A stretch of 64,000 nucleotides of DNA, taken from NCBI GenBank assembly GCA_964346295.1, contig CAYFUG010000004.1, positions 532 through 64,531 of the forward strand, read 5' to 3'. Each line of letters opens with the position of its first letter. The first letter of the stretch is position 1. The position numbers and the translations under genes are program-made. This document shows, one piece after another, positions 29,109 to 62,046 of the stretch. The stretch is from an uncultured Bdellovibrionales bacterium (GTDB taxonomy: Bacteria > Patescibacteriota > Minisyncoccia > Moranbacterales > DUUL01). The notes beneath the pieces were generated by a model. That model worked only from the letters and a program-made list of their open reading frames with translations. It had not been told where the DNA came from and did not search any database.

Positions 29109-29154
29109 CTCCTATCACGGGGAGTTTTTTGTTCTTTGAAAACTCAGAAATCAG
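29109..29154 (+). promoter_or_regulatory. boxB-like hairpin plus boxA-like antiterminator
   Basis: CTCTCCtatcacGGGGAG hairpin, then gttctttgaaaactcagaaatcag. Confidence 0.55.
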
Positions 29155-29335
29155 TAAAGTGGTTTTCTCCTAGGGCTTTTGTCCTTGGTAGGCAGCTTAG
29201 TGCTTATGAAAGTTTGTAAGCGCTGAGCTGTTTATCAAGCAAGGAAAGCCCGGGCGTCCTAGTCACCGGGAAATTTTACAAAAAAATTATCCGGGCTGTA
29301 CTAGGCAGCCCATTTTTCAGAAAAGGAGAAAGACC

Positions 29336-29785
29336 ATGAAGAAGAATTTCAAACTCGTTCCCGGATCCAAAGGTGCTCGCCGCTCCTTCGCCGTTACTTG
29401 TGGCCTGCAAGAGGGCTACGAAGACGGAACCCTTCACACTTTCCAGGAGGCCGTTGAGGTTGCCTTGGAATGGATGAGGGGGCGGGCCGCCGCCGGTGAG
29501 CAGTACTTGACTGGGACCTTCGTCCAGGGTGAGGTGGTGTTTGCCTGGCCCGAAGGCCCTGGCAAGGCCGGTGGCGGTCACGAGGCGACGGTGATTTACC
29601 AGGGCGAGGTCAGCCCGATCTACAACGCGGGCATGACCGATGAAGAGGCCGTCGAGATCCTCAATGACCTGGCGGCCCATCTGGGGACCGCTCTGGGCCA
29701 GACCCGGGTCTATGTCGCCTTGTGCGACCAGATCTGGATTCTCCAGGCGGAAGAGACGGAAACCCCCACCGGGGAGACCGTCTAG
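29336..29785 (+). CDS. hypothetical protein, GC island 2 gene 1 (149 aa)
   Basis: RBS AAAAGGAGAAAG then ATG. About 60% GC. Protein-like composition. Confidence 0.55.
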   Translation: MKKNFKLVPGSKGARRSFAVTCGLQEGYEDGTLHTFQEAVEVALEWMRGRAAAGEQYLTGTFVQGEVVFAWPEGPGKAGGGHEATVIYQGEVSPIYNAGMTDEEAVEILNDLAAHLGTALGQTRVYVALCDQIWILQAEETETPTGETV

Positions 29786-30072
29786 CGGCCGTTTTTCTGT
29801 CCCCCTTCAATTTGCTTTTGGCATTTAGGAGGGGGCAGCGCTGATTTCTGAGTAAGAGGGTTCAAGGAAGGCGGATTCACATTGTGCGTCCGCCTCCTTT
29901 TCTCAAATCTCAAGTTTAATTGAGGTTTGAGATGAAGGATTGCACCTTGAAAAATTTTCCCTATTTCTCCTTTCAATTGCCTTTTTTCACTTAGTGAAAA
30001 CAAATCCAACTTCGTTGATTGAAGTGAGGCAATTGACGATTTTCAACTGAAAAAAGGGAGAGGAGAAGGGGC

Positions 30073-30513
30073 ATGAAAATTCGAGTCAGGGATCCCAAAG
30101 AGGCGGCCGCCATTACCGGTGGCTGCACCTTTGAACCGGCTATCGGTTGGTGGACCTATACCGACCAGCCGGAAGAGCACGGAAGGCTGGGGCGGCTGTT
30201 TGAGGGGGAGCGGGATGCTTTATATATCCCCACACTCCAGAAAAATGGTCAGCCGGTGGCGGAAGAGGCCATTGCCCGCTTTAAGGTGCGAGCCAAGGAG
30301 TTGGGTTTTGGTGAAATCTCCGGAGCCTCCGGTATGTGGATTTTGTCCGACACGGGGGAGGCCCAGGTCGAGTACATCTGGATCTGTTGGGCTTCCCAAG
30401 TTTCGGATGAGACGCGGTCTCAGATGGCCGCGTTGGCAGAGGAAATCAAAGCCGCCACTAACCAGGACTGCGTGGCCTGGGAAAACGGCGGCCAGCTATT
30501 TTTCACGGGATAA
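30073..30513 (+). CDS. hypothetical protein, GC island 2 gene 2 (146 aa)
   Basis: RBS GGGAGAGGAGAAGGGG then ATG. Confidence 0.55.
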   Translation: MKIRVRDPKEAAAITGGCTFEPAIGWWTYTDQPEEHGRLGRLFEGERDALYIPTLQKNGQPVAEEAIARFKVRAKELGFGEISGASGMWILSDTGEAQVEYIWICWASQVSDETRSQMAALAEEIKAATNQDCVAWENGGQLFFTG

Positions 30514-30526
30514 GGAGGAGACACTT

Positions 30527-31306
30527 ATGAAACGGATTTTTGTTGTCCCTATCAACGATGGGGAGGCGGTAGAGATTAGGAATCTCCTACAGGATGGCGG
30601 TGAAGTGGTTGTGGAAAGCGTCCTCCGTTGGGGAGCCCGATGGGAGAAGCTGGAACCGGAGGTGGTGGCGGAGATCGAAAGGCTTCGCTCCCTTAATCCG
30701 GGAGTTCAGATCTACGGCGTGGAGCTGGCCGGCCCCAATCAGTGGGGGGCTCGCAACATCGACCACCACAAGTACCAGGATGAGGATCGGAGTAATTCCA
30801 AGTCCTCCCTGGAGCAAGTGGCGGAGTTGTTGGGCGTCCAGCTGACCCGGCACCAATTTTTGGTTTCGGAGAATGACAAGGGTTGGATCCCGGCGCTAAT
30901 AGCGGCCGGAGCCAGTCCCGACGAGATCGAACTGGTGCGGGCGCAGGATCGCCAGGCCCAGGGGGTTACCCCTGACGACGAAGCCCAGGCTCTTCGGGAT
31001 ATCGAGGCGGCCCAGTGGCAAGGTCGGAAGGTCTGGCTCCAGTGTCTCAAGGGGGCCACCTCGGCCCACACTGACCGGCTCTTTGGTCAGTTTGACGAAG
31101 CCCTGACGGTGGATGGGGTCAACGGAAAGTGGATCTATTTTGGTCCGCGATCCGAAGATTTCTTCGCCCTCACCGAAGGGGGCACCGAAGGGATACGCTG
31201 GAAAAGCCCTCGACCAGGGGGGTACTCCGGGGCGGAAAAGCCCCAGGAGGAGACCCAGGAAGCAATCCGGAATTTTTTTGGGAGTAATTCCCTTACCTCT
31301 TTTTAG
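30527..31306 (+). CDS. hypothetical protein, GC island 2 gene 3 (259 aa)
   Basis: RBS TAAGGAGGAG then ATG at 30527. The longer track ORF from 30119 has an R/P/W-rich N-terminal extension that overlaps gene 2 in another frame and is judged spurious. Confidence 0.55.
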   Translation: MKRIFVVPINDGEAVEIRNLLQDGGEVVVESVLRWGARWEKLEPEVVAEIERLRSLNPGVQIYGVELAGPNQWGARNIDHHKYQDEDRSNSKSSLEQVAELLGVQLTRHQFLVSENDKGWIPALIAAGASPDEIELVRAQDRQAQGVTPDDEAQALRDIEAAQWQGRKVWLQCLKGATSAHTDRLFGQFDEALTVDGVNGKWIYFGPRSEDFFALTEGGTEGIRWKSPRPGGYSGAEKPQEETQEAIRNFFGSNSLTSF

Positions 31307-31457
31307 CTAAGACGCACTAAGGAGAAGGACAAAATCAGCGTCGGGTTCAGATGGGCTGGCGAGAACCTCGTTAGCCCATCCTTTCCTAGTTCAGCACTAA
31401 AGTGGTGGTGGGCTAAGAAGGGATTAACGAAAAATCACCAAAAAAGGAGGCCCCAAA

Positions 31458-32003
31458 GTGTCTTTAACAAAAGAGCAATTCTCCAGATTAGCGAAGGTAG
31501 CGCTCCAGGTGGCAAAAGAGCGGGGCCAGAGCTTTTACGGGTGGGTTAATCCGCCTCAAATAGAGAGTGGAAAATTGACCCATGACTCCGGAAAAGGACC
31601 CCAGAAGATTTCTCCGGAAGAATCCCTGGCGATTTATAAGAGGAAGCTGGACGGGGTCTATGGGGAGAGATTCATTACCTCTTTGGGCACAATAGCTGCT
31701 TTGATAGCCAATGGCTATTCGGTGCGGCTGGTGCAGTTTTACAAGGAGGTAGGCCTGCCTTTTGACGCGGAGGGTTGGCTAGTGGTGATAATCGAAACCA
31801 TGCCAATTTTCCATGTTTCGCCGGGGGATCTGCGCCTGGAGCAGGTGGCGGATCTGGTTGAGGTGCTAGATGACAATCAAGCGCCCGATGTCTGCCACAA
31901 GGGCACCGACAAGCCGGGAGAGTTTGCGGCTCTTTTGCAGGGCTCTCTTTCTCCGGAGTTGGATTTGGTCAAGATTGCCCAGGAAAACAGTGGCAATTTT
32001 TGA
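31458..32003 (+). CDS. hypothetical protein, GC island 2 gene 4 (181 aa, GTG start)
   Basis: RBS AAAAAGGAGG, 7 nt, then GTG. Confidence 0.5.
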   Translation: MSLTKEQFSRLAKVALQVAKERGQSFYGWVNPPQIESGKLTHDSGKGPQKISPEESLAIYKRKLDGVYGERFITSLGTIAALIANGYSVRLVQFYKEVGLPFDAEGWLVVIIETMPIFHVSPGDLRLEQVADLVEVLDDNQAPDVCHKGTDKPGEFAALLQGSLSPELDLVKIAQENSGNF

Positions 32004-32104
32004 TTCTGTCTACTTTCGATTTTCGTTCATTTCCAATGGATCAGGTGTCATTGTGCATCTGATCCGGAATTCTGAGCTTAGCTCTATTAAGAGGTAGGTT
32101 CAGC

Positions 32105-32128
32105 GTTCTTTAAAAACTCAGAAATCAG
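32105..32128 (+). promoter_or_regulatory. second boxA-like motif, internal to the island 2 operon
   Basis: gttctttaaaaactcagaaatcag lies between gene 4 and gene 5, as a spacer boxA does in rrn operons. Confidence 0.5.
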
Positions 32129-32269
32129 GAAAATCCAACTTTCTATCTTTTCTCTTTGTCTTCTAAAAGTTGTTGGTTACCCGAGAGAATTTAATCTAGT
32201 TAATGAACTGAATTAGCCAGTTAAGTTTTTTTGGGCAACCAACAACCAAGGAAAGAGAAGGAGGAAGAC

Positions 32270-32518: not shown

Positions 32519-32704
32519 CCCTTACCTTAGAATTTTTTTGATTTCTAGGCCCTCTCCATCAGGCCTCCTGCGAAGTTAGCAGGTTTTAAAAATTTGGATG
32601 GTAGTCCGAGCGGCGGAAATGACTCAAAACTATCCGCAAAATTAGCCCTGACAATCAGGGCCGGCCGAGGCAAGCGCAATGCCGCTTTAGCCTAAGAGGC
32701 CACC

Positions 32705-32836
32705 AAAAGGCCCGAAAGAGTCTGGCCAACGCGCTAAATCTTTCGGAGGGACGAACTTGTTGAACACAACATTTTCGTCCCCTCTACTAGCAACTTAATT
32801 TGAGACTTGATCTTTTATTGAGTTGCTTGAGAGAAT
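32705..32836 (+). repeat. 132-bp direct repeat, copy 1
   Basis: Near-identical (2-3 mismatches) to 34004..34136. Contains a GGGACGAA-cttgttgaacacaacatt-TTCGTCCC hairpin. Confidence 0.85.
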
Positions 32837-32924
32837 CTATTTTGAAAGGCGAGTTCTTTGAAATATATCCAAAGCTTCATTGTAATCTTTGGGTACTTCA
32901 ACCAAACCAGAAAAGGGGGATGCC

Positions 32925-33971
32925 ATGGGTAAATTTCAGGAAATCACACTGGAATTATTGTTGGAAAATGAAGTTTTGAGGAAGTATCTTCTCAAGGCAA
33001 GAATTGGTCCAGCTAAAAAAGGCGACGGTGCTTTTGTGGGGACTTATGATATTGCCCCGAAGGAGTTTCGGAGTTTTGGAATTGTTTTGCCCAGGGGCGG
33101 GATGATTATTCCAGGGGCAGATCCTGTCAAGTTAAAGGAAATGGTCAAGGAGCCTGAGCGCCGGCGTGAGGCGGAGGACTTGGCAAATCGTCGTGCTGTT
33201 GAAAAAGATTATCTCAATCAGGTGAAAGAGATAATTGCTGAAGCTGGCCTCACGGATATTGAAGTGGTGGAAGAAGACGGAGTGGACTTCCATAGTATCG
33301 GCGCCACCAGCTGGCACAAGAGCTTTTTGGTAAGAGAAGGAGAGAAAATCTTCAGTCTTCACAGCGAAGAGGAGCCGTATCGTGGCTTAGATGACGATGG
33401 TTCGTACGAGCCGTGGAGGACGGAGTTTACTCCGTTGGAAGAGGTGAAATCCTTCCTTGAAGAGGAGGCGCGTCTTGTTGGTCCGAGAAAAATGTTTGCT
33501 GATCGGATCAGGCGGCTTATTGATATAAGCCACAATGTTGGTCAGCAAGGGCCAGATGAAACTGGCTGGGATCGCCCTCGAGTGGAATTATTTTTGTACG
33601 ATGACTATAAAAAAGGCAGGGACTGGGGTTTTTTCGGTCATCGTTGTCAGGGTATCTCTTCGGCCCACAGGATTTACTATCGAAAAAAACTCTATGAGAT
33701 TACCGAAGAAGGCATTTCTCGCCTTGAGTATGAAATCGGAGAAAGGGAGGAGGCGCTAGAAGCAAGACGAGCGATGCTCAAAAGACTCTTCGAAGAGAAG
33801 GGCAGAGTTTTTGAGGAACTCAAAGAAGAGAAAGATTGCTATGCCGGAAAGTCACTGGCAACCGGCAAGGCAAAGTACGATGAGTGGACTGAAACGCGCT
33901 ACTTTCTCGGCGACACAGAAGTTACCGAGGAAGAGCGTGATTGGCTGAAGGGCTTACCTAAGGATAATTAG
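32925..33971 (+). CDS. hypothetical protein (348 aa) bracketed by the 132-bp direct repeats
   Basis: RBS AAAAGGGGGA then ATG at 32925. Charged soluble protein with no recognisable motifs. Confidence 0.55.
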   Translation: MGKFQEITLELLLENEVLRKYLLKARIGPAKKGDGAFVGTYDIAPKEFRSFGIVLPRGGMIIPGADPVKLKEMVKEPERRREAEDLANRRAVEKDYLNQVKEIIAEAGLTDIEVVEEDGVDFHSIGATSWHKSFLVREGEKIFSLHSEEEPYRGLDDDGSYEPWRTEFTPLEEVKSFLEEEARLVGPRKMFADRIRRLIDISHNVGQQGPDETGWDRPRVELFLYDDYKKGRDWGFFGHRCQGISSAHRIYYRKKLYEITEEGISRLEYEIGEREEALEARRAMLKRLFEEKGRVFEELKEEKDCYAGKSLATGKAKYDEWTETRYFLGDTEVTEEERDWLKGLPKDN

Positions 33972-34003
33972 TGGATAAGGCCCTCAAGACTCTTCAAATT
34001 TTC

Positions 34004-34136
34004 AAAAGGCCCGAAAGAGCCTGGCCAACGCGCCAAATCTTTCGGAGGGACGAACTTGTTGAACACAACATTTTCGTCCCCTCTACTAGCAACTTAATTT
34101 GAGACTTGATCTTTTATTGAGTTGCTTGAGAGAATT
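34004..34136 (+). repeat. 132-bp direct repeat, copy 2
   Basis: See copy 1. Confidence 0.85.
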
Positions 34137-43021: not shown

Positions 43022-44218
43022 TTGACTTCAAAGAAAAAAAAACAGACCAGTTTTTTAGGGGACAAGAAGGTGGCTTTAGTCCACGATTTTTTGTTATACT
43101 GGGGGGGAGCGGAGGCCACTTTGCAAGTGTTGGCCAAAATGTTTCCTCAGGCGCCGATTTACACCCTGCTTCAGGATGAGCAGTTTACCAAAAAGCACTT
43201 CAGGGGGCGAGAAATCCGGACCTCGTTTTTACAGAAAATTCCCCGCTGGATCCGCAAAAAACACACTCGCTTATTGCCGCTAATGCCAACCGCCATTGAG
43301 TCGCTCAATTTGCGGGATTATGACTTGGTAATTTCCTCCTCTTCGGCTTTTGCCAAGGGAATTGTGGTGAAGCCTAAGACCACCCATGTTTGCTACATGC
43401 ACGCCCCTATGCGTTATGTCTGGGACTACTATCACCAGTATTTTCAAGAGCGCTTTGGCAATCGAGCTAAAATTTTTACCCGGACTTTTCTCAACTACTT
43501 GCGAACTTGGGATCGAGCCAGTGCCGACCGGGCTGATCATCTGGTTGCCAATTCTCGTTACACTGCTCGGCGAATCGAAAAATATTATCGTAGAGAATCC
43601 ATGGTGATTTATCCCCCAGTGGAGGTGGAAAAATTCGCCCTCAGTCCGGACAAGGCAAATTCCAGTATTTCTTCTAGCTCTGATTTGATAGAGAAGCAAA
43701 ATCAGGCCAGGAGAGGTAGCTATTTTTTGACAACGGGGCGCTTAGCGACTTATAAGCGGGTAGATCTTTTGATTGAGGCTTTTCAGAAGCTCAAGTTGCC
43801 GCTAGTGATAGTGGGTGATGGCCCGGAGCGTAAAAAGCTAGAGAAATTAGCCCAAGGGAACAGCAAGATAAAAATTTTAGGCTGGCAAAGTGAGGAAAAA
43901 TTAATTCGACTTTATCAAAATTCCCGGGCCTTTGTTTGTGCCACCGAAGATGATTTCAATATCACTTGCGTGGAGGCAATGGCAGCCGGAACGCCGGTAA
44001 TTGCCTTAAAAAAGGGCGGCGTGCAGGAAACAGTAATCGAAGGTCAGACGGGAATATTTTTCCAGGAGGCACGGTTGGAGCTAGTGGTGGATGGAGTGCG
44101 GCGGTTTATTGAAAAAGAGGCTGATTTTGACTCGGAGGTGATTCAGGCTCGAGCGAGGGAGTTTTCGAGGGAGAGATTTGAGAAGGAGATGCGAAAGTAC
44201 TTGACTTCCATTTTTTGA
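43022..44218 (+). CDS. glycosyltransferase family 4 (RfaG-like)
   Basis: EAMAAGTPVIALKKGGVQETVIEGQTGIFF GT4 signature. Confidence 0.8.
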   Translation: MTSKKKKQTSFLGDKKVALVHDFLLYWGGAEATLQVLAKMFPQAPIYTLLQDEQFTKKHFRGREIRTSFLQKIPRWIRKKHTRLLPLMPTAIESLNLRDYDLVISSSSAFAKGIVVKPKTTHVCYMHAPMRYVWDYYHQYFQERFGNRAKIFTRTFLNYLRTWDRASADRADHLVANSRYTARRIEKYYRRESMVIYPPVEVEKFALSPDKANSSISSSSDLIEKQNQARRGSYFLTTGRLATYKRVDLLIEAFQKLKLPLVIVGDGPERKKLEKLAQGNSKIKILGWQSEEKLIRLYQNSRAFVCATEDDFNITCVEAMAAGTPVIALKKGGVQETVIEGQTGIFFQEARLELVVDGVRRFIEKEADFDSEVIQARAREFSRERFEKEMRKYLTSIF

Positions 44219-44325
44219 AAATTTTGGTGTCAAAATCTCCGCTACTCCCTCACCGTAACTCTCAGTACGCCTCGCTCGCTGCTCGATTTCTCCTAAAAAT
44301 TTCCTAAAAAATGAAAGTCCTTAAA
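44219..44325 (+). repeat. dispersed repeat, B-type module
   Basis: ttttgaaaattttggtgtcaaaatctcc...ctcaccgtaactctcagtacgcctcgctcg...tcctaaaaatttcctaaaaaatg. Confidence 0.55.
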
Positions 44326-46835: not shown

Positions 46836-46995
46836 ACCCCGCACTAGAGCTTTGCTCAATGCGGGACAAGAATCTCGTTGTTGCCGGTTGCGTTTCGAAC
46901 TCATCGTACCTTTAGTGCGACTCGTCCGAAGCCTCACCCTTCTTTCCCACTTTCCGCTAAGGCTACAGAAGGGACAGATAAAACTTGAAAGTCCT
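46836..46995 (+). repeat. dispersed repeat, full-length copy (B+A modules)
   Basis: tccaaattttga overlaps the gene's SKF-stop. Then ...ctcatcgtacctttagtgcgactcg...ccgctaaggctacagaagggacagataaaacttgaaa. Confidence 0.6.
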
Positions 46996-47017: not shown

Positions 47018-47100
47018 TGATAAAATTTCCAGGAAAAACAATCAGTGGAGTGATATAAATTCCTTGATTTTTTATCAGTGGAGTGATAAAATTTCCAGGT
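47018..47100 (+). repeat. interleaved short direct repeats upstream of the ATPase gene
   Basis: tgataaaatttccagg occurs twice (47018, 47084). atcagtggagtgata occurs twice (47041, 47074). Confidence 0.7.
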
Positions 47101-47102
47101 AA

Positions 47103-48377
47103 ATGATTAATTCTAGAAAAATGATTTCAAGAGAAATTTATCCTAAGCTTTATAGTTGGGCGAAAAAGGGCAAGATTATTATTTTGAAGGGACCTCGTCA
47201 GGCGGGGAAAACGACCCTGATGAATTTTTTATTAGACAATCTTAAAAAAGAAGGTCAAAATACCGCTTATTTGTTGGCAGATGACATTGATAAGCAAGAG
47301 TTGTTTAAGTCTCCAGCCGCTCTGGAATTTTACTTGAGTCAGAAGTATAATTTTCCCGAAAAACATCTTTTTCTTTTTATTGATGAGTTTCAATACATTG
47401 ATCAGGCGGGACTCTTCATTAAAAACTTTTTTGATAAGCATCAGGGCCAGGTAAATTTAATTTTAAGTGGGTCTAGTTCCCTGGAAATCACTCAAAATCA
47501 AGAGTTTTTGACCGGTCGGGCGGTGGAGTTTGAAATGGGAACTGTTAATTTTCGAGAGTTTTTTAATTTTCGAGAAGGAACTCGGATTAAAAAATTTCCC
47601 CTTGAAAGCCAGGATGATTTAAGTAATTTTTATAAATCCTTTGAGAGTAAGCTAAGCCTCGCCTTAAAGAATTTTTTAGTTTTTGGGGGGTATCCTGAGG
47701 TGGTGGAAACCTCATTAGAGGAAGATAAGAAAGTAATTTTAAAGTCGATTGTTAAGAAATATTTAGAAAAGGATGTGGCGGGTTTTTTGCAAATCGAAAA
47801 TATCACTGCCTTTAACAACTTAACGAAGATTTTGGCTTCTCAAATTGGTAATTTAGTTAATATTAGCGAACTGGCTAATACGGTAAACTTATCCATTAAC
47901 ACCGTTAAAAGATATCTGGATGTTTTGCAAGGGACATATGTCTTTAGTCTGGTGCGACCATATGCTAAGAACATTCGCAAGGAGCTAAGCAAAATGCCTA
48001 AAGTTTATATTCAAGACTTGGGGGCAAAAAATTATCTTTTAGGTGATTACAAAGACAATTTATTTGGTGGCAAGGAAGTGGAAAATTTTGTTTTTTTAGG
48101 GATGGCTAATAATTTAAGTTCAGAAGGAGTTAACTTCTATCGAACCAAGGGAGGCTCAGAGGTCGATTTTATTTTAGAAAAAGAGGGTGGCTTGAATTTG
48201 ATAGAAGTTAAATATCGGTCGGTTTCCAAGATCAAAGAGCCTCTGGCATTCGCCAATTTTTCGGAAAATTATGGAGACAGAGTTCAAAACAAGATTGTGA
48301 TTTCCAAAGATGTTTTAAAAAAAGATGGGAATATTTACTTTATTCCGGCGGTGCTTTGGCCCTGGATAGAGTTATAG
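47103..48377 (+). CDS. AAA+ ATPase with C-terminal DUF4143-like domain
   Basis: Walker A GPRQAGKT, Walker B FIDEFQ. Confidence 0.7.
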   Translation: MINSRKMISREIYPKLYSWAKKGKIIILKGPRQAGKTTLMNFLLDNLKKEGQNTAYLLADDIDKQELFKSPAALEFYLSQKYNFPEKHLFLFIDEFQYIDQAGLFIKNFFDKHQGQVNLILSGSSSLEITQNQEFLTGRAVEFEMGTVNFREFFNFREGTRIKKFPLESQDDLSNFYKSFESKLSLALKNFLVFGGYPEVVETSLEEDKKVILKSIVKKYLEKDVAGFLQIENITAFNNLTKILASQIGNLVNISELANTVNLSINTVKRYLDVLQGTYVFSLVRPYAKNIRKELSKMPKVYIQDLGAKNYLLGDYKDNLFGGKEVENFVFLGMANNLSSEGVNFYRTKGGSEVDFILEKEGGLNLIEVKYRSVSKIKEPLAFANFSENYGDRVQNKIVISKDVLKKDGNIYFIPAVLWPWIEL

Positions 48378-48419: not shown

Positions 48420-49652
48420 ATGAAACAAACTAAAATTATTACCGAAAAGTGGGAGCAGGTGAGTCCAAGATTTATCTCTAGCTACCAAAAGACAGGAGGT
48501 TATCAGGATTTGGCTAAAGCCTTAAAAATGGGTCCGGATCAGGTACTTCAAGAGGTGTTAGCGTCTGGTCTGGCCGGTCGGGGCGGGGGCGGATTTCCTA
48601 CCGGAAAAAAGTGGCAAACGGCTTTAGAACAAAAAGCTTCGGAAAACTACTTTATCTGCAATTTGGATGAATCGGAGCCAGGGACTTACAAAGATCGCTA
48701 TTTAGCGGAAAGTAGTCCTCACCAGCTTTTAGAGGGCATTATGATTGCTTCTTTTGCCCTCAAGGTGAAGAAGGCTTACATTTACCTCAATGGAAATTTT
48801 CACGCCGCTCGGCAGTTGCTGCAAAACGCCCTTCAACAAGCCCAGGAAGCCGGATTTTTAGGAGAGAATATCTTGGAGAGCGGTTTTGATTTAGAAATCG
48901 AACTATTCGTGGGGGCGGGGGCCTATATTTGCGGAGAGGAATCAGCTTTGATTAATTCTATTGAGGGTAAAAGAGGGGAGCCACGGCGCCGGCCTCCTTT
49001 TGCTTGTGTTTGCGGACTGCATAATCGCCCTACGGTTGTGAACAACGCCGAAACTATTGCCAACTTGCCTTGGATAATCCAGAATGGCGGCAAGGCTTAT
49101 TCCCGGGTTGGCCTGCCAGATCAGCCGGGTACTAAACTTTTTTCCATCGGGGGAATGGTGCGTAACCCTGGTTTGTACGAGTTTCCTTTGGGCGTCAGTG
49201 TGCGAGAATTGGTTTACAAAGCGGGAATGGGCATGCGGCCAGGATTGGATTTTTGGTTTGCTCAAGTGGGGGGATCAGCCGGTCGCCTGGTAACGCGCAA
49301 TTTATTGGATGAAATTCCTAGTTATTCTCGCAAGGCTCGGATTTCGGTAGGATCGGGGGCGGTGCTGGTGGTAGATAAAAACCAGGACATCAAGGAACTT
49401 TTACTAGCTTGGAGCCGGTTTTTTGCTCGGGAGTCTTGCGGGCAGTGTGTTCCGTGTCGAGAGGGGACTTTCCGTTTGCAGCAGCTTGTAGAGCGCTTGG
49501 GGGGAGAAAATTTCAGTCAAGATGATTGGGAGGACATGCAGCGCATTATTTTCACTCTGGAGCGGAGTACTTTTTGCGCTTTAGGGAAGTTTGCAGCGGT
49601 GGCGATTAAGGATGCGCTGGAGCTGAAGTTGGTGGAGGCTTCCAAATTTTGA
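48420..49652 (+). CDS. NuoF-like NADH-binding FMN/Fe-S flavoprotein (complex I 51-kDa / HoxF-like)
   Basis: GLAGRGGGGFPTGKKW FMN motif. ESCGQCVPCREGT 4Fe-4S motif. The C-terminus EASKF-stop is supplied by the repeat. Confidence 0.8.
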   Translation: MKQTKIITEKWEQVSPRFISSYQKTGGYQDLAKALKMGPDQVLQEVLASGLAGRGGGGFPTGKKWQTALEQKASENYFICNLDESEPGTYKDRYLAESSPHQLLEGIMIASFALKVKKAYIYLNGNFHAARQLLQNALQQAQEAGFLGENILESGFDLEIELFVGAGAYICGEESALINSIEGKRGEPRRRPPFACVCGLHNRPTVVNNAETIANLPWIIQNGGKAYSRVGLPDQPGTKLFSIGGMVRNPGLYEFPLGVSVRELVYKAGMGMRPGLDFWFAQVGGSAGRLVTRNLLDEIPSYSRKARISVGSGAVLVVDKNQDIKELLLAWSRFFARESCGQCVPCREGTFRLQQLVERLGGENFSQDDWEDMQRIIFTLERSTFCALGKFAAVAIKDALELKLVEASKF

Positions 49653-49745
49653 AAATTTTGGTGTTGCAAGCTGCGTTTGGCACTCACCGTACCCTTCAGT
49701 ACGGCTCGCACCAAGCCTCGCTTGCGCCTAAAAATTTCCTAAAAT
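49653..49745 (+). repeat. dispersed repeat, B-type module
   Basis: ttgaaaattttggtgttgcaagctgcgtttggcactcaccgtacccttcagtacggctcgcaccaagcctcgcttgcgcctaaaaatttcctaaaa. Confidence 0.6.
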
Positions 49746-49815
49746 TTGGAAGCCTTAATCCAGCGGTTATTTTTAGTGGGAGATTTTTACAAGTTAACTT
49801 TTAAAATTTATTAAA

Positions 49816-55868: not shown

Positions 55869-55967
55869 GGAGTTTTAAATTTTGAAAGGATTCGAGTGAA
55901 TTATCAAGATACTTTTTGGAAAAATTGTTTAATTTGATTTTTTTAAACTAAAATACTACAATTCCTA

Positions 55968-56358
55968 GTCGCTTGGTCTAGCTTTGTCTAGATCAAGAGG
56001 AAAGTCTGGACACCAGCCGGCTTTCAATTGGAAGCCAGTTAAAAGGGTAATCGGTAACGCCGATCGGGCTCGATGTGAGTCGAGTCAAGGGATAGCGCCG
56101 CAGAGACAATACTAGTTAATGCTCTGCATTAACGAAAGGTGAAAAGTGTCGAGGGGCTCATTTCTTCGGAATTTGAGCTACTCGACTCGGCTATTGGCGA
56201 CAATAGTTTGTGGCAAGCCCTACCCGGTGCAAGGCCGTGTCTTCTCGTAAAAGAGAGGAAGTGCCGCTAAAGTTCAGCAGTGATGTTGAATGTAGATAAA
56301 TGACTAGGCCAATTTACTTTGGTAGATTGGTACAGAATCCGGCTTATTTTATCTAGTT
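55968..56358 (+). ncRNA. rnpB: RNase P RNA (bacterial type A-like)
   Basis: P4 strands AGAGGAAAGTCTGGAC ... ACAGAATCCGGCTTAT. Also conserved GGTAACGCC, AAAGGTGAAAAG and GGCAAGCCC...GCAAGGCC elements. The ends are approximate. Confidence 0.65.
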
Positions 56359-56658
56359 TTCAGTTAGTAGTTTTCAGTTTTTAGGCCGCATGGAGGCAGC
56401 GCAGGTTATAGAAGCGAGTCCTTTGTAAAAATCTCGAGCGTTGTTTACAGCTTTCTTTATTAGTAGAACACCTCTATTTTTCTTCATGAGGCATTTTGTC
56501 TCCTATATAAGGCAATAAACGCCGTCATTAAAACTGGAGCGGTTTGAAATTGAAATTTAAAAATGTAAACAACGCTAAGGAATCTTACAAGTTATTTCTT
56601 ATCTTGAATTTTCTGGTGTAGTATATGCTGAGCTAAGATAGAAAATAAAATCAAAAGA

Positions 56659-57144
56659 ATGGGTCAATTTGTTTATTTTATACCCCATTTATTCCCACTG
56701 ATTGTCGGAGGGGTGGTAATTTTCTCTCTGGGACATTTTAGCTTTAAATTCTTTATGCACCTTGTGAATAGGAGGTTTTATGTAGCTCCTAGGGAAGGCT
56801 CTATTCTTGGTAAGACGGCAGCTTTCTTGTCTTTGGGATTTTTACCAATTTTTTTCTTAGTAGGAATGCTGGAGTCTAAATTGGATGGATTTTTGAATGA
56901 CCTAATGTTAAATTCTAGTATTTTTCAGCGGGGGACTTTTTTAAGAAAAGCTATCTTTTATCTAGAGCAAAGTTCACTTGCTCTGATTTTTCTAGTTGTT
57001 TATTTAATTTTTTACTCATTTTTAATCTTTCTTTCATATTCCAAAGAGTCAAATAAAAAGTGGGCCTTTCTTTCAGAAGTTGTAATTTTTATTGGGATAG
57101 GCTATTTGGGCTATTTGCTTTTAGTGGCATTTGGAGTGGGATGA
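56659..57144 (+). CDS. hypothetical integral membrane protein (161 aa)
   Basis: Four or five TM helices. Overlaps mreC by 14 nt. Confidence 0.45.
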   Translation: MGQFVYFIPHLFPLIVGGVVIFSLGHFSFKFFMHLVNRRFYVAPREGSILGKTAAFLSLGFLPIFFLVGMLESKLDGFLNDLMLNSSIFQRGTFLRKAIFYLEQSSLALIFLVVYLIFYSFLIFLSYSKESNKKWAFLSEVVIFIGIGYLGYLLLVAFGVG

Positions 57145-58018
57145 TTTTTTAGTTTTAATTGCTTCATTTTCTATGGTTAAAAGATCTTCGGGTAAAATTA
57201 AATATGGAGTGGTTGGGGGAGTTTTTTTATTGGTTTTATTGGTGGTCTTTGTGACTAGAGGGAGCGATAAAAAACCCCTGGAGGGCTTTTGGAATTGGAC
57301 AGTGCGGCCAGTAGCAGGAGTTTTTTCGGCAGTGGGAGGTTGGTTTGGTCAAAAAACTTCGGTGGTTACTTCCATTGGGGAAGTTAAAGAGGAGAATAAC
57401 CGCTTAACGGAGGAGAATTTAAAATTAAAATTTCAATTATCTCAATTGGCTAGTATTCAGCGAGAAAACGAGGAGTTGCGGAGTTTGTTGGCCTTGGCAC
57501 CAGTGGATAAATACGATCTGGAATCAGTGCTGATTGTGGGGCGAGATGTGAATGGTCAAAGAGAGGTGGTTTATCTTAGCAAGGGCAGCAAGCAGGGCAT
57601 TCAAGAGGGGATGGGAGTAGTGGTAGGTGAGGGGGTGTTGATTGGAAAAATTTCTAAAGTTTTTGCTAATTCTTCACAAATGGAGTTTTTAGTGAGTGAT
57701 ATGCGAGTAAACGCTGAAATTGTGGAAGCGGGAGCCAAGGGTGTAGTGGTGGGCCGCTATGAAACGGCAGCGCTAATGGAGATGATTCCTCGGACAGTAG
57801 AGGTAAACAAAGGCGATGCGATTATCACTTCTGGGGTGGGAAAAACTCTCCCCAGGGGTCTTTTGATCGGTTATGTAGCGGAAGTTAAACCTTCTTCTAA
57901 CCAGCTTTTCCAAGAGGCTAGTATTGAATTTTTGGTGGATTTTCAAAAAATTCGGGGAGCGTGGGTGGTGAAAAAGGCTAAGGATGAGGAAGAGGAAGTT
58001 GACCGAGTAGAAAACTAA
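57131..58018 (+). CDS. mreC: rod shape-determining protein MreC
   Basis: N-terminal TM segment, then a coiled coil (ENNRLTEENLKLK). Beta domain motifs VVVGEGVLIGKI and IITSGVGKTLPRGLLIGYV. Confidence 0.8.
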   Translation: MEWDDFLVLIASFSMVKRSSGKIKYGVVGGVFLLVLLVVFVTRGSDKKPLEGFWNWTVRPVAGVFSAVGGWFGQKTSVVTSIGEVKEENNRLTEENLKLKFQLSQLASIQRENEELRSLLALAPVDKYDLESVLIVGRDVNGQREVVYLSKGSKQGIQEGMGVVVGEGVLIGKISKVFANSSQMEFLVSDMRVNAEIVEAGAKGVVVGRYETAALMEMIPRTVEVNKGDAIITSGVGKTLPRGLLIGYVAEVKPSSNQLFQEASIEFLVDFQKIRGAWVVKKAKDEEEEVDRVEN

Positions 58019-58051: not shown

Positions 58052-58837
58052 TTAAGCTGGCAAAGTTTTCCAAAGTTGCTCAAATTGGGTGCGTTGGAGA
58101 GCGTAGATTTGAGGATCTTCGATAATGATGGAAATTAACCCGGAGGACCCGATTGCCTGGTAGGAGATTTTATTGTGATAAATTTGAATGGAAGCGCTGA
58201 AGTTAAGGGCGCTTTTTTTAATGAAACGCACTTGAGTGATGGCCTGGTAATTAGCGGGAGCAGTTCGATATTCTTCGATTATTCCGGGTTCATCAAGATC
58301 GATAATCCTTTTTTGGAGCCCCAAACGGGCTCTTTTTTGAGTGTAGCGAGCGTTGATCTTCTCATTGTTTTTGGCTAATTTCGGATCAGTGGTTCTAAAA
58401 ATAGCAGCAGAATCGATTAAAGTGAGAATTTCCGTGTCGCTGCGCAAAGTGTCCTCCAGCACTTTCTCTAGACCTTCGGAGCCCTCTAAAAAGCGAATTC
58501 CTGGTCGATTGAGGCCCAAATTGTATAAAGAAGCTAAGTTAGGCGCCATCTCTAAGAAGGCGCTTTTTTGTTGCTTAAATTCTTGCTCTTTTTGATCGAG
58601 GATTTTTTGGATTTGAGCCGGGTGTTGAGCGGAAAAACGGGCTACTTTGCCTTTTTTATCAAGCCTAAAGACTAGTTCCAGGTTCTCTAGCTCAGCCAGA
58701 ATTTTATAGGCGGCTTCTCTGGGGCGGTTGGTTTTTTGGGCAATTTCTCGGGCTCGGGTCGGTCCGTTTTGGTAGAGGAATTCCAAGATTTGGGCTTGGG
58801 AGGGGGTGAGGCCGATGCTTTGGAGAAGTTCCAGCAT
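58052..58837 (-). CDS. TrmB-family HTH transcriptional regulator, divergent from GC island 3
   Basis: LLQSIGLTPSQAQILEFLYQNGPTRAREIAQ HTH. Confidence 0.7.
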   Translation of the reverse strand: MLELLQSIGLTPSQAQILEFLYQNGPTRAREIAQKTNRPREAAYKILAELENLELVFRLDKKGKVARFSAQHPAQIQKILDQKEQEFKQQKSAFLEMAPNLASLYNLGLNRPGIRFLEGSEGLEKVLEDTLRSDTEILTLIDSAAIFRTTDPKLAKNNEKINARYTQKRARLGLQKRIIDLDEPGIIEEYRTAPANYQAITQVRFIKKSALNFSASIQIYHNKISYQAIGSSGLISIIIEDPQIYALQRTQFEQLWKTLPA

Positions 58838-58859
58838 ATTGAGAAGAACTTCCAGATTT

Positions 58860-58960
58860 GGCGAATCTCGATGTTACTCGCTGCGTTTAGTACTCACCAT
58901 ACTTCTTAGTACGCCTCCCACTAAGCCTCACTTGCACCTAGAGCTTCACTCAAATCTGAA
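58860..58960 (+). repeat. dispersed repeat, B-type module
   Basis: gctgcgtttagtactcaccatacttcttagtacgcctcccactaagcctcacttgcacctagagc. Confidence 0.55.
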
Positions 58961-59119
58961 AGTTTTAAAGTAAGCTGTTTATTTTGTCATGGGTAATTTT
59001 AGCACATTTATATTTTTTGTAAACTTTTAAGATTACATTTTTTAGGCTTATTTAATTATTTTATCTTTATTGAGTTATTTTTTAAAGTAACATTTTCAAT
59101 TTTAGTGTAGTTTTGATTA

Positions 59120-59148
59120 TTGACAAATATTAATTATTATGCTACAAT
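59120..59148 (+). promoter_or_regulatory. sigma70-type promoter of GC island 3
   Basis: TTGACA, 17 nt, TGcTACAAT. Within the TTGACAA...TGTCAAGCTCAGAAAAGG palindrome. About 150 bp of very AT-rich sequence upstream. Confidence 0.65.
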
Positions 59149-59239
59149 GCTCTGTCAAGCTCAGAAAAGGTTCAGATTCGTGGGTTTTGATTGTTGGAAT
59201 AATTTTGAGATCCGGAAAAAGGCTTAAAAAGCTTTTCTC

Positions 59240-59285
59240 GGGCTCTCAAAGCAGAGCCTAGGTTCTTTGAAAACTTAGAAATCAG
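59240..59285 (+). promoter_or_regulatory. boxB-like hairpin plus boxA-like antiterminator
   Basis: GGGCTCTcaaagcAGAGCC hairpin, then gttctttgaaaacttagaaatcag. Confidence 0.55.
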
Positions 59286-59420
59286 TTACTTCGAGATTCT
59301 TACTTGGAAATTGATAAAGAGGGTAGTTATCAGTCTTTTGAGGCTCTAAATTGCAAAATTTGGGGCTTGAGATGACTGATAACTTATTTTTTATTTTCTT
59401 TTATCAACAAGGAGGATATC

Positions 59421-60554
59421 ATGAAAAAAATTTTTTTATACAGTCCGGGCGCGGATCTGCTCCTTTCCTGGGGCGCTCATTTGATCGAACGGCCTGATCT
59501 GTCAATCGAACGGGACATGCTCGCGGGCGCGATCAGCGAATGGAACCGGAACGAATTGCTGGCGGATTTCCTGGAATCCTGGCCGACCATGCTGGAAGAC
59601 GCCAACAAGGCGCAAGCGTTTTTTGAAGCTCGTCCCGTCATTCCCAATGATTTCACCGATCCTGACTGGAATGAGGCCATTGACGCCCTGCGGGCGTTCG
59701 ACCAGGTCGTTCATCTGTGGGTCGCGGTCGAAGACTTGTTCAGTGACAACGCGCCGGAAGTCATCGACGAACTGGAAGGCCGTTGTTACGACATTTCCGA
59801 ATGGCTTGACAACGCCGAATCGTTTACCAGCCTTCGTCTGGCCCCCTTGAACGAATGGCGGAAAAACCGGATTGAACGCGTCGAAGCGTCTTCCCGGTTC
59901 CTGTTTCCCTGGCTTGCCGATATGGCATGGGCCCCCGCCGACGCGCTGGAACAGCTTGAAGCCCATTGGAACGCGGTTCGGGAAAAAGGCGTTGGCGGCC
60001 TTTCATTTATCGCCGAGCCGGACCGCCTCATTTTCTGGGATTATTTAAAACGCGACATCGGGCTTCAGCAGGAAATGGAAAACCGCCGGCGGCTGGACAT
60101 CGCCATCGCCGACGCCGTGGATCAGAGCCTTCCGCTTCAACTGTTGCGGGTATACGAGAAGCATGTGCAAATATCCGACGTGCCGGAACACGTCCTTCGC
60201 CATGGACTGGCCAACGCGGCCTGCGCCGCCCTGACGGGCGACCGGCATGACGAAGCGTCCCATGAAGACCTGGGCCCCGCCCTGGAAGCGGCCATGGCGC
60301 AAAACGCTCCCATCGAGCGCGTGCTGACGACCGCCCTTTGCGGCCCCTTTCTTACCGACGCCCAGCGGCTTGCCGCGTTCAAGCGGGCCGCGATGAAGCT
60401 GGAAAAAGACGTCTCGGTGGGCGGTTTGGAGGGAATCTTCACCCAGGTGGACCTATGGATGAAAAACGAACTGACGGACGGCGATTTTGCCGACGCGATG
60501 ATGGCCGCCTGGGACCGGATGGCGGAAAACGCCATGAAAGGAGGTGATAACTGA
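59421..60554 (+). CDS. hypothetical protein, GC-rich (377 aa)
   Basis: RBS AAGGAGG, 6 nt, then ATG. About 60% GC. Balanced amino-acid composition. The antisense and alternate-frame ORFs are treated as GC artefacts. Confidence 0.55.
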   Translation: MKKIFLYSPGADLLLSWGAHLIERPDLSIERDMLAGAISEWNRNELLADFLESWPTMLEDANKAQAFFEARPVIPNDFTDPDWNEAIDALRAFDQVVHLWVAVEDLFSDNAPEVIDELEGRCYDISEWLDNAESFTSLRLAPLNEWRKNRIERVEASSRFLFPWLADMAWAPADALEQLEAHWNAVREKGVGGLSFIAEPDRLIFWDYLKRDIGLQQEMENRRRLDIAIADAVDQSLPLQLLRVYEKHVQISDVPEHVLRHGLANAACAALTGDRHDEASHEDLGPALEAAMAQNAPIERVLTTALCGPFLTDAQRLAAFKRAAMKLEKDVSVGGLEGIFTQVDLWMKNELTDGDFADAMMAAWDRMAENAMKGGDN

Positions 60555-60671
60555 TTTCTAGTGGTTCTTTTCGGATCAGGCTCGCAATGCGCGCTTGGTC
60601 CGGAATTCTGAGCTTGTCTGGAGCAATTTGATTGCTTTAGGCAAGTTGAGAATTCTTGAGTGATATTTTTT

Positions 60672-60708
60672 CAAACCTGGCAGATCTAAAGATAGGCCAG
60701 GTTTTTTG
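60672..60708 (+). terminator. rho-independent terminator
   Basis: ACCTGGC-agatctaaagatag-GCCAGGT followed by TTTTTT. Confidence 0.7.
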
Positions 60709-60813
60709 ATGGTGCTCAATTTCCCTGTCTCCCTTTGCAAAAAAAAGGGGGAGCTGGGAAATTGTTTTTTGTTTAGCTAACTGTTAAAATTAGGCTATCA
60801 ATTTCTATCAACT

Positions 60814-61050
60814 CTAGGAAGATCTTAAAAAATAAAAACTAATGTTGGGCGAAAAAATTATCGATAAAAAAAGATTTGATTCTCGTTTTTTATCCTCATG
60901 AGTGTACTTCATTGCGTCTCCTCGTTGTTCAATGATCTTGTCAATTTGCTTTTCTGATAGCTCCGGATCATCGTTTCCAGTGAATTTTGCCATCATCATT
61001 TGAAGTCTCCGCTCCTCTGTTTTTTCAGATTTTTCCAATTCCTTGCTCAT
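60814..61050 (-). CDS. small hypothetical protein (78 aa)
   Basis: Overlaps the upstream small gene by 4 nt (ATGA-type coupling). Confidence 0.35.
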   Translation of the reverse strand: MSKELEKSEKTEERRLQMMMAKFTGNDDPELSEKQIDKIIEQRGDAMKYTHEDKKRESNLFLSIIFSPNISFYFLRSS

Positions 61051-61298
61051 TGCGTTGTTTTTTGAAGGTAATTAAGCAAAAAAACGCTCCCTTTGGATTT
61101 TCTTGAGTCTTCTTCTTTTTCAAAGTAATAATCTAAAGAATCCCTCAATTCCTTTTTCAGTAAGATAGAAATCAAAAAACGAGCCTCTCTTGAAGTGATT
61201 AAACTTTCCTTTTTCGCTTCAACGATTCTATCAATTTTTAAGTCAAGTTCGTCGGAGTAGTTGTTCTTGGGACGGATTGTGATGCTAGTAGTATTCAT
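61047..61298 (-). CDS. small protein with ribbon-helix-helix-like N-terminus (CopG/antitoxin-like)
   Basis: TSITIRPKNNYSDELDLKIDRIVEAKKESLITSREARFLISIL fits the beta-alpha-alpha pattern of RHH proteins. Confidence 0.35.
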   Translation of the reverse strand: MNTTSITIRPKNNYSDELDLKIDRIVEAKKESLITSREARFLISILLKKELRDSLDYYFEKEEDSRKSKGSVFLLNYLQKTTQ

Positions 61299-61521
61299 TA
61301 GATTGATTTTATCTTTATGGTTTCATTTTAACTCAATTAGAGAAAAAATCAAGAAAGCAATTGAGGCAGTTAATCCTGAAGCTCCCTTCTTTAGAGATTT
61401 TTTTGTGAAAAATTTACCAGTTGCGAGAGTTGGAAAATCTTGTAAACTGAAAATGTAGTTAGCAGATTTTAATTTCCTTATCTATTCCAAACAGGCTCTA
61501 AGCCACTATTCAGATTATGTT

Positions 61522-62046
61522 ATGGGCAAGATCATTTTTTTCTTTTTATTTCTCACTTTTTTTGTCGAGTTCTCTCTTTTGGCAGCTTTTCCGGGGGATT
61601 TTTTTGCGGGAGCCGGTTTTTTCGCAGTTTTTTTGCTGGCAGTAACTCTCAAGCGAGATGAGGAGGAAAGTCTATTTTGGGCTATTTCCGGAGGTATTTT
61701 CTTGGATTATTTCTCGTCTTTGCCCTGGGGAACTAATGCCTTGGCTTTTGGATCAATAGTTTTTTTGGCTGCTTTAGTAAAACAGAAGTTGCTTTCTCAG
61801 GACCAGCGCTTTTATCAAGCTTTTGTCTTGGTGCTGGTCTTGGAGATCATCTTTTCAATCCTGATTCTTTTGTGGGGTAATTTTTTATCGTTAATCACGG
61901 GAGAGGGTTGGTTATGGCTAGGTTCTTCGGCGGGAAGTTACTTAATTTCGCAGGTGTTTTTTGCTCTTTGGGGAGGATTTTTCTACAAGATACTGTGGCT
62001 GGGAGAGAGTTATTTGGAGAAGAAAGAGAGACGGTTGATTGTCTAA
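61522..62046 (+). CDS. mreD: rod shape-determining protein MreD-like membrane protein
   Basis: 174 aa, 5 TM segments. Lies between mreC and the PBP2 gene. Confidence 0.55.
   Translation: MGKIIFFFLFLTFFVEFSLLAAFPGDFFAGAGFFAVFLLAVTLKRDEEESLFWAISGGIFLDYFSSLPWGTNALAFGSIVFLAALVKQKLLSQDQRFYQAFVLVLVLEIIFSILILLWGNFLSLITGEGWLWLGSSAGSYLISQVFFALWGGFFYKILWLGESYLEKKERRLIV

Follow-up and report, generated by a model that had tools for sequence, protein, structure and literature searches.

In a 64,000-nt stretch of the genome of an uncultured, Moranbacteria-like bacterium of the Candidate Phyla Radiation (CPR; GenBank assembly GCA_964346295.1, contig CAYFUG010000004.1, positions 532 to 64,531; hereafter the window), a foreign-gene expression module lies between the cell-shape genes mreC and mreD. 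Its cargo is 1104 bp cut from inside csx30, a gene of type III-E CRISPR loci, and provided with a new, in-frame start and stop codon, and the product of 377 amino acids (aa) is essentially the whole helical N-terminal domain (NTD) of Csx30. The window has about 40% GC overall and contains three blocks at 55–65% GC (islands 1–3), of which the module described here is island 3. We hold the identity of the cargo, its foreign origin and its insertion with high confidence. As the best explanation of the whole we propose, tentatively and at a strength slightly short of probable, a captured Csx30 NTD cassette acting against type III-E signalling.

Identity, origin and boundaries of the captured gene

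The cargo region comprises the following features.
59421..60554 (+): 377-aa open reading frame (ORF), Csx30 NTD whose N-terminus (MKKIF) and C-terminal tail (KGGDN) are new
59434..60537 (+): foreign segment from inside a Desulfobacteraceae-type csx30, donor codons ~9–376
60536..60560 (+): 3' junction, which holds a Shine-Dalgarno-like 13-mer, GAAAGGAGGTGAT, together with the stop codon and the 3' arm of a leader-trailer helix (60548–60560)

The GC content of the 377-aa ORF is 58–61% vs ~40% in the flanks, and the ORF passed the NCBIfam equivalog model NF041234 (CAS_csx30) at 154.5 bits against a cut-off of 125 (E = 4.4e-45), with a match limited to profile positions 2–347 of 560. No match was found in Pfam, PADLOC or PHROGs, and the protein was identified via NCBIfam and the context of its homologues. 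Four close homologues were retrieved among 5.8e9 proteins, two of which are 572–576 aa long and encoded on contigs of 55–58% GC; identity to three homologues was 76–87% at the amino acid level, all three scored above the CAS_csx30 cut-off, and the 572–576-aa homologues are Csx30 (PDB 8eey_E; NCBIfam). When the 377-aa ORF was searched by tblastn against phage and plasmid collections, no match was obtained.

By ungapped blastn, the cargo segment was 92.0% identical over 1104 nt to positions 383–1486 of L002, a sibling metagenome contig carrying a 576-aa csx30, and 86.0% identical to the csx30 of L001, a contig of the metagenome-assembled genome (MAG) of an 'uncultured Desulfobacteraceae bacterium'. 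The donor-like contig L002 comes from Joint Genome Institute (JGI) sample 3300012009 (Ga0153773), whose number neighbours that of the sample from which the window derives, 3300012002 (Ga0153774). The L001 locus has the canonical type III-E order CRISPR array-csx29-rpoE-csx31-csx30-cas7-11, and type III-E genes are also present at the L002 locus. The giant gene downstream of the donor csx30 encodes Cas7-11/gRAMP (PDB 7zol, E = 0; NCBIfam 1000 bits), the 583-aa CHAT protein of the donor locus is Csx29/TPR-CHAT (PDB 7zoq, 6e-106), an RpoE-like sigma factor (4408–5040 in L001) and a split Csx31 are encoded between csx29 and cas7-11, and the CRISPR array has nine repeats. The split csx31 of L001 (5072–6326) consists of two ORFs, one of 191 and one of 192 aa, which match the N-terminal and the C-terminal half of the Csx31 model in NCBIfam.

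At the 5' junction, the donor N-terminus MTTWTEQEI was swapped for the AT-rich MKKIF at an AAATTTT microhomology, while at the 3' junction donor homology ends after ...GACGCCATGA and is followed by AAGGAGGTGATAACTGA. The element GAAAGGAGGTGAT at the 3' junction is a 13-nt complement of the canonical 16S rRNA 3' end, and a start codon within usable reach of it is missing; it may be an orphan ribosome-binding site (RBS), left over from a downstream gene since lost, or may serve to stabilise ribosome binding. The arrangement AAGGAGG...TGA was seen at both cargo junctions (60536–60554; 59409–59424).

The place of the cut was examined against a model of the full-length protein. The AlphaFold model of the 576-aa homologue, built with a 42-sequence alignment (mean predicted local distance difference test, pLDDT, 85.8), consists of an all-helical NTD at residues 7–385 (pLDDT > 90 up to ~380), a linker at 386–448 (pLDDT < 50) and a beta-rich C-terminal domain (CTD) at 450–576. 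Homology of the cargo runs as far as donor residue 376, in the final helix of the NTD, and the linker, the cleavage site and the Craspase-binding CTD are absent from the 377-aa protein. For comparison, DiCsx30 of D. ishimotonii has its NTD at 1–377, linker at 378–418 and CTD at 419–565, the CTD alone sufficing for cleavage (PMC13000227), and the cleavage sites in three orthologues are L407, M427 and A434 (PMC11106740). RpoE is bound by the NTD of Sb Csx30 and not by its CTD, with a Kd of ~0.2 uM, for which Csx30 was likened to an anti-sigma factor (PMC9825189), and Sb Csx30 1–407 retains binding to RpoE and RpoE-Csx31 (bioRxiv 10.1101/2022.08.22.504715). The family as a whole (103 Csx30 clusters in 1.84 billion representatives) consists almost entirely of proteins of 510–620 aa with a conserved stretch to ~370–390. 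Since the 377-aa protein has neither the two-domain architecture nor the type III-E locus context, it should be called a Csx30-NTD-only derivative and not a Csx30.

A second protein of this kind is encoded at positions 98–1288 of L011, a GC-rich contig from Logan SRR19594469: an NTD-only Csx30 of 396 aa with its native N-terminus and a 24-aa tail (…GLVADGIAGPKTYQAMGLIS). Homology of L011 to full-length csx30 stops within 3 nt of the cargo breakpoint. Because L011 and the cargo diverge at one boundary, the junction of NTD and linker looks, on these sequences, like a natural recombination point in donor-type organisms.

The captured sequence is well preserved. No stop codon and no frameshift was found in its 367 foreign codons, and GC at third codon positions (GC3) is 0.71 in the cargo vs 0.73 in L002; with almost no amelioration towards the CPR genome, the transfer is recent. 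When L001 and L011 served as outgroups, the cargo branch received 19 synonymous and 19 non-synonymous changes (omega ~0.3), a pattern similar to that of the L002 full-length branch, with 12 synonymous and 15 non-synonymous changes. The cargo-specific substitutions are confined to variable columns of the 42-sequence family alignment, and no family-conserved residue was lost relative to the full-length close relatives. This sequence state is compatible with a functional domain.

Insertion between mreC and mreD

The block is bordered by, or contains on its downstream side, the following genes.
57131..58018 (+): mreC, Pfam MreC E = 2.9e-32, upstream flank of the insertion
60814..61050 (-): 78-aa ORF, overlapping the 83-aa ORF by 4 nt and translationally coupled, found in independent assemblies
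61047..61298 (-): 83-aa ORF, for which the label 'RHH-like' (ribbon-helix-helix) was not confirmed
61522..62046 (+): mreD, Pfam MreD E = 9e-6, above the gathering score, downstream flank
from 62143, past the window end (after mreD): PBP2 gene, PBP_dimer + Transpeptidase, 670 aa

The preliminary description of this DNA placed mreC and mreD about 3.5 kb apart and proposed that a regulated cargo cassette had been inserted into a conserved cell-shape operon. Pfam confirmed both genes at these positions, and mreB, mreC, mreD and the PBP2 gene are contiguous in three of three relatives (L005, L006 and L007; MreC identity 46–54%), where mreC and mreD overlap or lie no more than 30 nt apart with nothing between them. 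One of the three is a Candidatus Moranbacteria MAG, the closest named relative by MreC. Because the two genes are adjacent in these relatives, from which the intervening DNA is absent, the 3.5 kb were inserted here. The proposed reading is supported, and the cargo is demonstrably foreign. A genome-contig scan using MreC alone gave no match.

The 3.5-kb block is more than one event. The TrmB-like gene that forms its mreC-proximal end has a host-like composition, unlike the cargo. In the nearest relative, L004 (89% MreC identity), a short contig ends ~130 nt past mreC, and in its final ~50 nt it shows a resemblance to the TrmB-like gene at that gene's 3' end; to judge from this contig end, the regulator probably predates the cargo. 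Neither an integrase nor a target-site duplication was seen when the island borders were read by eye, and neither a tRNA site nor terminal direct repeats were found. Rfam over the window gave RNase P RNA as the sole match (144.6 bits) and no tRNA; at a permissive threshold, positions 58840–61520 yielded one sub-threshold chance match only. The two small minus-strand genes of the preliminary description are real as a coupled pair, as given above; the RHH-like assignment of one of them was not confirmed. Neither ORF matched any family in Pfam, NCBIfam, PADLOC or PHROGs, and the single-sequence AlphaFold model of the 83-aa ORF (pLDDT 73.5), in which residues 1–14 are disordered and helices follow, had no match with E < 1 in a Foldseek search against the PDB.

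Upstream of mreC, the window also departs from its relatives. Positions 55953–57144 are taken up by the gene for RNase P RNA and by a membrane-like ORF of 161 aa (56659–57144), whereas relatives have mreB directly upstream of mreC; mreB is not beside mreC in the window, and L004 is without the 161-aa ORF.

An assembly chimera at the GC transitions was raised in the preliminary description; a joining of CPR and Desulfobacteraceae reads there would fit the sharp GC steps observed. Both GC junctions, however, recur in assemblies from three other runs (the 'microbial mat metagenome' PRJEB25599 and ERR1878606; ENA and Logan assemblies) at 100% identity, or 99.9% in L023. L017 and L018 run across the 5' junction (59434), and L022 and L023 across the 3' junction (60537); all four come from other runs and other assemblers. 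Both junctions also keep the reading frame and are fitted with a start and a stop made for it. In detail, the ENA assembly of ERR2437277 runs across the leader-cargo junction to 59967, the ENA assembly of ERR2437276 resumes at 60000, the Logan assembly of ERR1878606 reaches up to 59474 and resumes at 60324, and positions 59968–59999 are supported by the JGI contig alone. Every independent assembly breaks inside or just before the cargo, as a chimera might predict (L017, L018, L019, L020, L022 and L023, with ends at 59354, 59389, 59474 and 59967 and starts at 60000 and 60324); these breaks suggest graph tangling with co-occurring near-identical csx30, or strain heterogeneity in the cargo. Because both junctions recur in independent assemblies, we conclude that the structure is not a chimera, an explanation that we regard as extremely improbable.

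The expression module and the other islands

The elements that precede and follow the cargo in island 3 are listed below.
58052..58837 (-): TrmB-like winged-helix regulator, Pfam TrmB 6.6e-11 and MarR_2 2.6e-8, divergent from the cargo promoter
58849..58968 (no strand): dispersed palindromic repeat of ~120 nt, 73–77% by blastn to 49639–49758, 44205–44324, 24122–24206 and 46871–46935
59120..59179 (+): promoter unit TTGACAA-N11-TATGCTACAAT-N5-GTCAAGCTCAGAAAAGG, with -35 TTGACA, extended -10 TGCTACAAT and a TTGACA/TGTCAA inverted repeat
59157..59420 (+): structured 5' leader, minimum free energy -85.9 kcal/mol, with a 28-nt-arm hairpin at 59325–59384
59240..59285 (+): boxB-like hairpin (59240–59259), then rRNA-type boxA GGTTCTTTGAAAACTTAGAAATCAG
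59276..59288 (+): leader arm of the leader-trailer pairing, TAGAAATCAGTTA, partner 60548–60560
59409..59415 (+): Shine-Dalgarno AAGGAGG, 5 nt before the ATG
60596..60764 (+): trailer with three hairpins, 60596–60660 (-34.9 kcal/mol), 60673–60704 + U tract, and 60717–60764

Most elements named in the preliminary description were found in place: the minus-strand TrmB-like regulator, the dispersed-repeat copy, the promoter within a palindrome, the boxB/boxA leader, and the 377-aa gene of about 60% GC behind a perfect AAGGAGG. The promoter, TTGACA-17-TACAAT with TG at 59120–59148, matches the consensus at 11 of 12 positions, and the 60-nt promoter unit occurs in four copies in the window (at 9046, 9128, 28878 and 59120). 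The terminator stands in part: a terminator-like 15-nt-arm hairpin (60673–60704, -17.1 kcal/mol) is followed by the U tract UUUUUUGA and lies between two stronger hairpins, but a simple terminator scan listed no site after the 377-aa ORF.

The TrmB-like gene at 58052–58837 is 36% identical (E 1e-47) to a paralogue at 28001–28762, which is likewise divergent at the island 2 promoter. A strict promoter pattern gave no match in the metagenome-contig collection, which did not include the source sample; a looser pattern found two unrelated metagenome contigs, L009 and L010, both with a TrmB-like gene, the same promoter, a boxA leader and a downstream gene of higher GC. Because TrmB-like genes pair with the promoter at island 2, L009 and L010, the regulator is part of a module of regulator, inverted-repeat promoter, leader and cargo. 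The TrmB-like protein may gate the promoter through the inverted repeat.

The leader folds more stably than expected (z = -5.95 vs 200 shuffles). The hairpin at 59240–59259 is followed by the boxA GGTTCTTTGAAAAC, which extends through 59273. The motif GTTCTTTRARAA occurs four times in 64 kb, always on the plus strand and always in an island leader; boxA GTTCTTTGAAAAC, 105 nt downstream of the conserved start region, has four occurrences in the window vs ~0.03 expected by chance. Each of the four boxA copies is preceded by a hairpin whose stem sequence differs from all others, and among the four hairpin+boxA units the 24-nt boxA block is 89–93% conserved. These boxB-like hairpins, of 7–13 bp, end 1–4 nt before boxA in four of the four copies and in the L009 copy, with individual z-scores that are not all significant. 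By sequence, the leader qualifies as an rrn-type boxA antiterminator. The idea, prompted by boxA, that the GC-rich islands are themselves rRNA was ruled out by the Rfam result, which shows RNase P RNA only and no rRNA.

Long-range pairing around the cargo was assessed by exact-complement search and shuffles, since RNAduplex on whole leader/trailer pairs was uninformative. Positions 59276–59288, just 3' of boxA, are a perfect 13-nt complement of 60548–60560, which overlap the stop codon; such a complement was reached in 3 of 1000 shuffles (about 0.2–0.3% for island 3 and island 2 each). Island 2 has an equivalent 13-bp pair around its first ORF (29142–29154 / 29841–29853). In addition, the conserved transcript start CAAGCTCAGAA (59156–59166) is complementary to TTCTGAGCTTG (60606–60616), which belongs to a trailer element present in island 2 as well and also sits inside the strong local hairpin 60596–60660, and the trailer element GGATCAGG...TCCGGAATTCTGAGCTT is common to the trailers of islands 2 and 3. 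Taken as a layout, the promoter, boxB-like hairpin, boxA and flanking helices resemble those of an rRNA operon. From what is known of boxA, such a leader would recruit Nus factors, and the GC-rich foreign gene could then be transcribed without Rho-dependent termination.

The resemblance to rrn antitermination leaders extends to the strong promoter, to a hairpin directly 5' of a boxA that exactly matches the rrn consensus of Gram-positive bacteria (TGTTCTTTGAAAACT), to the pairing of sequence 3' of boxA with sequence 3' of the cargo, like a 16S processing stem, and to a second boxA in the 'spacer' position of island 2. The difference is that the island leaders drive horizontally acquired protein-coding genes; Nus dependence and RNase III processing are putative.

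Island 2 (28001–32120) consists of the TrmB-like paralogue (28001–28762, minus strand), the promoter at 28878, a hairpin+boxA unit at 29100–29154 and four GC-rich ORFs (29336–29785, 30073–30513, 30527–31306 and 31458–32003), and it was reproduced in independent ENA and Logan assemblies. Its 259-aa ORF is a homologue of NrN (PDB 9lq9, E 1.4e-17; PADLOC DHH_CorA, E 3e-31), which degrades SAM-AMP, a type III CRISPR signal (PMC12255297). In a different genome (L024), the 146-aa and 259-aa ORFs of island 2 are fused (416 aa), beside a 1438-aa helicase-like gene and behind a boxA-like site. The second hairpin+boxA, in the 'spacer' position after the island 2 cargo, lies at 32074–32131 and is followed by a 360-aa ORF (32889–33971), with 133-nt direct repeats of 98% identity at 32704–32836 and 34003–34135.

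Island 1 (9046–11300) has tandem promoters at 9046 and 9128, a ~1.1-kb leader with a hairpin+boxA unit at 9941–9975, and a cargo of one 326-aa ORF (10229–11209, ~60% GC), with no TrmB-like gene adjacent. The 326-aa ORF had no match in Pfam, NCBIfam, PADLOC, PHROGs, PDB, or the phage and plasmid collections, and no paralogy was found when the island cargo proteins were compared with one another.

The ~120-nt, partly palindromic repeats are dispersed over the window (24122, 24975, 44200, 46871, 49634 and 58849) and occur at 173–289 of L004, where the copy sits within the RNase P RNA homologous region and splits the match to window positions 55967–56350. Three paralogous AAA_14/DUF4143 ATPase genes are found at 6258–7505, 7623–8957 and 47103–48377, and two of these genes are closely preceded by short tandem repeats of 33 nt (7573–7638 and 47018–47128).

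Possible roles of the captured domain

The cargo resembles Csx30 in its equivalog score above the cut-off, its all-helical NTD and its 88% amino acid identity to a bona fide, locus-encoded Csx30. It differs in being the NTD only, without linker, cleavage site and Craspase-binding CTD, in not lying beside cas7-11, csx29, rpoE, csx31 or a CRISPR array, and in being carried by a CPR genome of ~40% GC, where a foreign promoter and leader precede it. In its full-length form, Csx30 acts in the manner of an anti-sigma factor gated by a protease, comparable with RseA/sigma-E, and the captured piece is the sigma-binding part; unlike RseA, it has had the protease-sensitive gate removed, and binding, if any, would be constitutive.

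Given the published biochemistry of Csx30, the captured NTD would be expected to bind type III-E RpoE and Csx31 and yet be blind to Craspase. If the cassette is expressed at a high level and its product is delivered to, or exchanged with, a Desulfobacteraceae partner, the NTD-only protein would break the link between RNA sensing by Cas7-11-Csx29 and the response that follows it, its net role being that of an anti-defence decoy, i.e. a dominant-negative anti-sigma module. We favour this decoy reading because the binding module was kept and the switch lost, because island 2 contains an NrN homologue and phages deploy signal-degrading enzymes as anti-CRISPRs (PMC12255297), and because one report describes an episymbiont as the target of a host CRISPR system (Esser et al. 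2023, as cited in PMC12133352). A protease-insensitive decoy or hijacker in a Desulfobacteraceae partner is the likeliest of the functions considered for the 377-aa protein, although we think it somewhat less than probable.

Comparable logic is known from anti-CRISPRs and other co-opted defence parts: a defence part is copied by a putatively opposing genome and given strong expression signals, and a winged helix-turn-helix (TrmB-like) regulator stands beside a near-consensus promoter as in acr-aca operons, while the proposed action lies downstream of target recognition and not on the effector complex. Here, however, the carrier is a cellular, putatively episymbiotic bacterium and not a phage or plasmid, and the cargo is a binding domain and not an enzyme, for which inhibition is predicted. 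As in genomic islands of CPR/Patescibacteria, compositionally deviant DNA lies in a conserved operon, but the cargo is sub-genic, domain-sized and refitted with start, RBS and stop in a reusable module. A literature search retrieved no anti-CRISPR reported for type III-E and no Csx30 fragment reported outside CRISPR loci. Horizontal acquisition, co-option of defence parts and boxA antitermination are each known, whereas their combination and the carrier are unprecedented.

Several points weigh against the decoy reading. It presupposes expression of the 377-aa protein and its exit from the CPR cell, and the protein has no recognisable signal peptide; the association between the CPR bacterium and Desulfobacteraceae is itself drawn from gene transfer and co-occurrence, and should be read as putative. 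Given the recent transfer, the intact frame and omega of ~0.3 may largely reflect history in the donor lineage, and an in-frame start alone has a 1-in-3 chance. With Csx30 homologues absent from the phage and plasmid collections, there is no precedent for its use by mobile elements. NrN-like genes are widespread at 45–67% identity, other CPR bacteria included, and for this reason the anti-type-III theme is weaker for island 2 than for island 3. The nine spacers of the L001 array gave chance 10–11-mers only against the window and all loci, a comparison that is uninformative as the spacers come from another MAG. Furthermore, the N-terminal fragment of Csx30 has been reported both as RpoE-bound and as toxic, with its role unsettled, so that the sign of the effect (block or trigger) is unpredictable.

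This toxicity makes a triggering role a serious rival, in which the NTD-only protein would imitate the N-terminal product released by Craspase and trigger growth arrest, either as a weapon in the Desulfobacteraceae partner or as a TrmB-controlled dormancy switch in the CPR cell. The fragment is indeed most of the large N-terminal cleavage product, and a dedicated regulator by a very strong promoter fits a gene that needs to be off. Toxicity in Escherichia coli is reported for the N-terminal part of Di Csx30, and toxicity is also reported for the two Sb fragments in combination with Csx31 and RpoE (bioRxiv 10.1101/2022.08.22.504715, citing Kato et al.). However, neither Csx31 nor RpoE, which were required for the Sb toxicity, is encoded in the window, the cargo ends at donor residue 376, 30–60 residues short of the natural products (L407, M427, A434; PMC11106740), and the problem of delivery is the same as for the decoy; we take a trigger to be unlikely. 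Domestication for the CPR cell's own use, for example as an anti-sigma-like regulator acting on a CPR sigma factor or as part of a type III-E-derived system elsewhere in the genome, would agree with the NTD being the sigma-binding module (PMC9825189) and with its placement under a local regulator, and the visible genome is limited to 64 kb. On the other hand, no cas gene, CRISPR array or ECF sigma factor was detected in the 64-kb window, the composition shows a very recent arrival, and the Csx30-RpoE pairing appears lineage-specific, Craspase-Csx30 pairs not cross-reacting (PMC11106740), which together leave domestication quite improbable.

An alternative to any function is that environmental Desulfobacteraceae DNA entered, through illegitimate recombination, an expression site that was already there and in which an earlier cargo was replaced or truncated, and that the resulting functionless fragment is too young for decay. 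The near absence of amelioration, the fragmentary nature of the gene and the AAATTTT microhomology at the 5' junction would all be expected, the Shine-Dalgarno-like orphan at the 3' junction hints that a downstream gene has been lost, and the database contains a single 90%-identity cluster, with one complete gene. Debris would not, however, be expected to break at a structural domain boundary, within 3 nt of the point where L011 diverges, nor to be fused precisely in frame to a start codon with an optimal RBS. Substitutions at variable positions only, with omega ~0.3, the persistence of the identical sequence in four datasets, and a second island with another type III accessory homologue likewise speak against it, and we judge it improbable.

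Extended to all three islands, the decoy reading would make them the anti-defence arsenal of an episymbiotic CPR bacterium, expressed from a platform that mimics an rRNA operon. The captured parts of the host type III CRISPR system would then be the Craspase-blind Csx30 domain of island 3 and the NrN-type SAM-AMP phosphodiesterase of island 2, together neutralising RNA-triggered abortive responses of the Desulfobacteraceae host. We consider this wider view rather doubtful; if true, it would represent the first anti-CRISPR-like function in a cellular symbiont and the first candidate inhibitor of type III-E, as well as a clue, from genome sequence, to which organism hosts an uncultured CPR lineage.

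Whatever its role, a natural NTD-only Csx30, found here and in L011, offers a handle on the disputed function of the N-terminal fragment, and the 377-aa protein is a candidate type III-E inhibitor from a cellular symbiont rather than a virus. For most CPR lineages the host is not known; here the 92%-identical fragment directs attention to one particular partner, a Desulfobacteraceae population that co-occurs. In turn, the rrn-like boxA platform suggests a general way in which small AT-rich genomes may express GC-rich DNA despite Rho.

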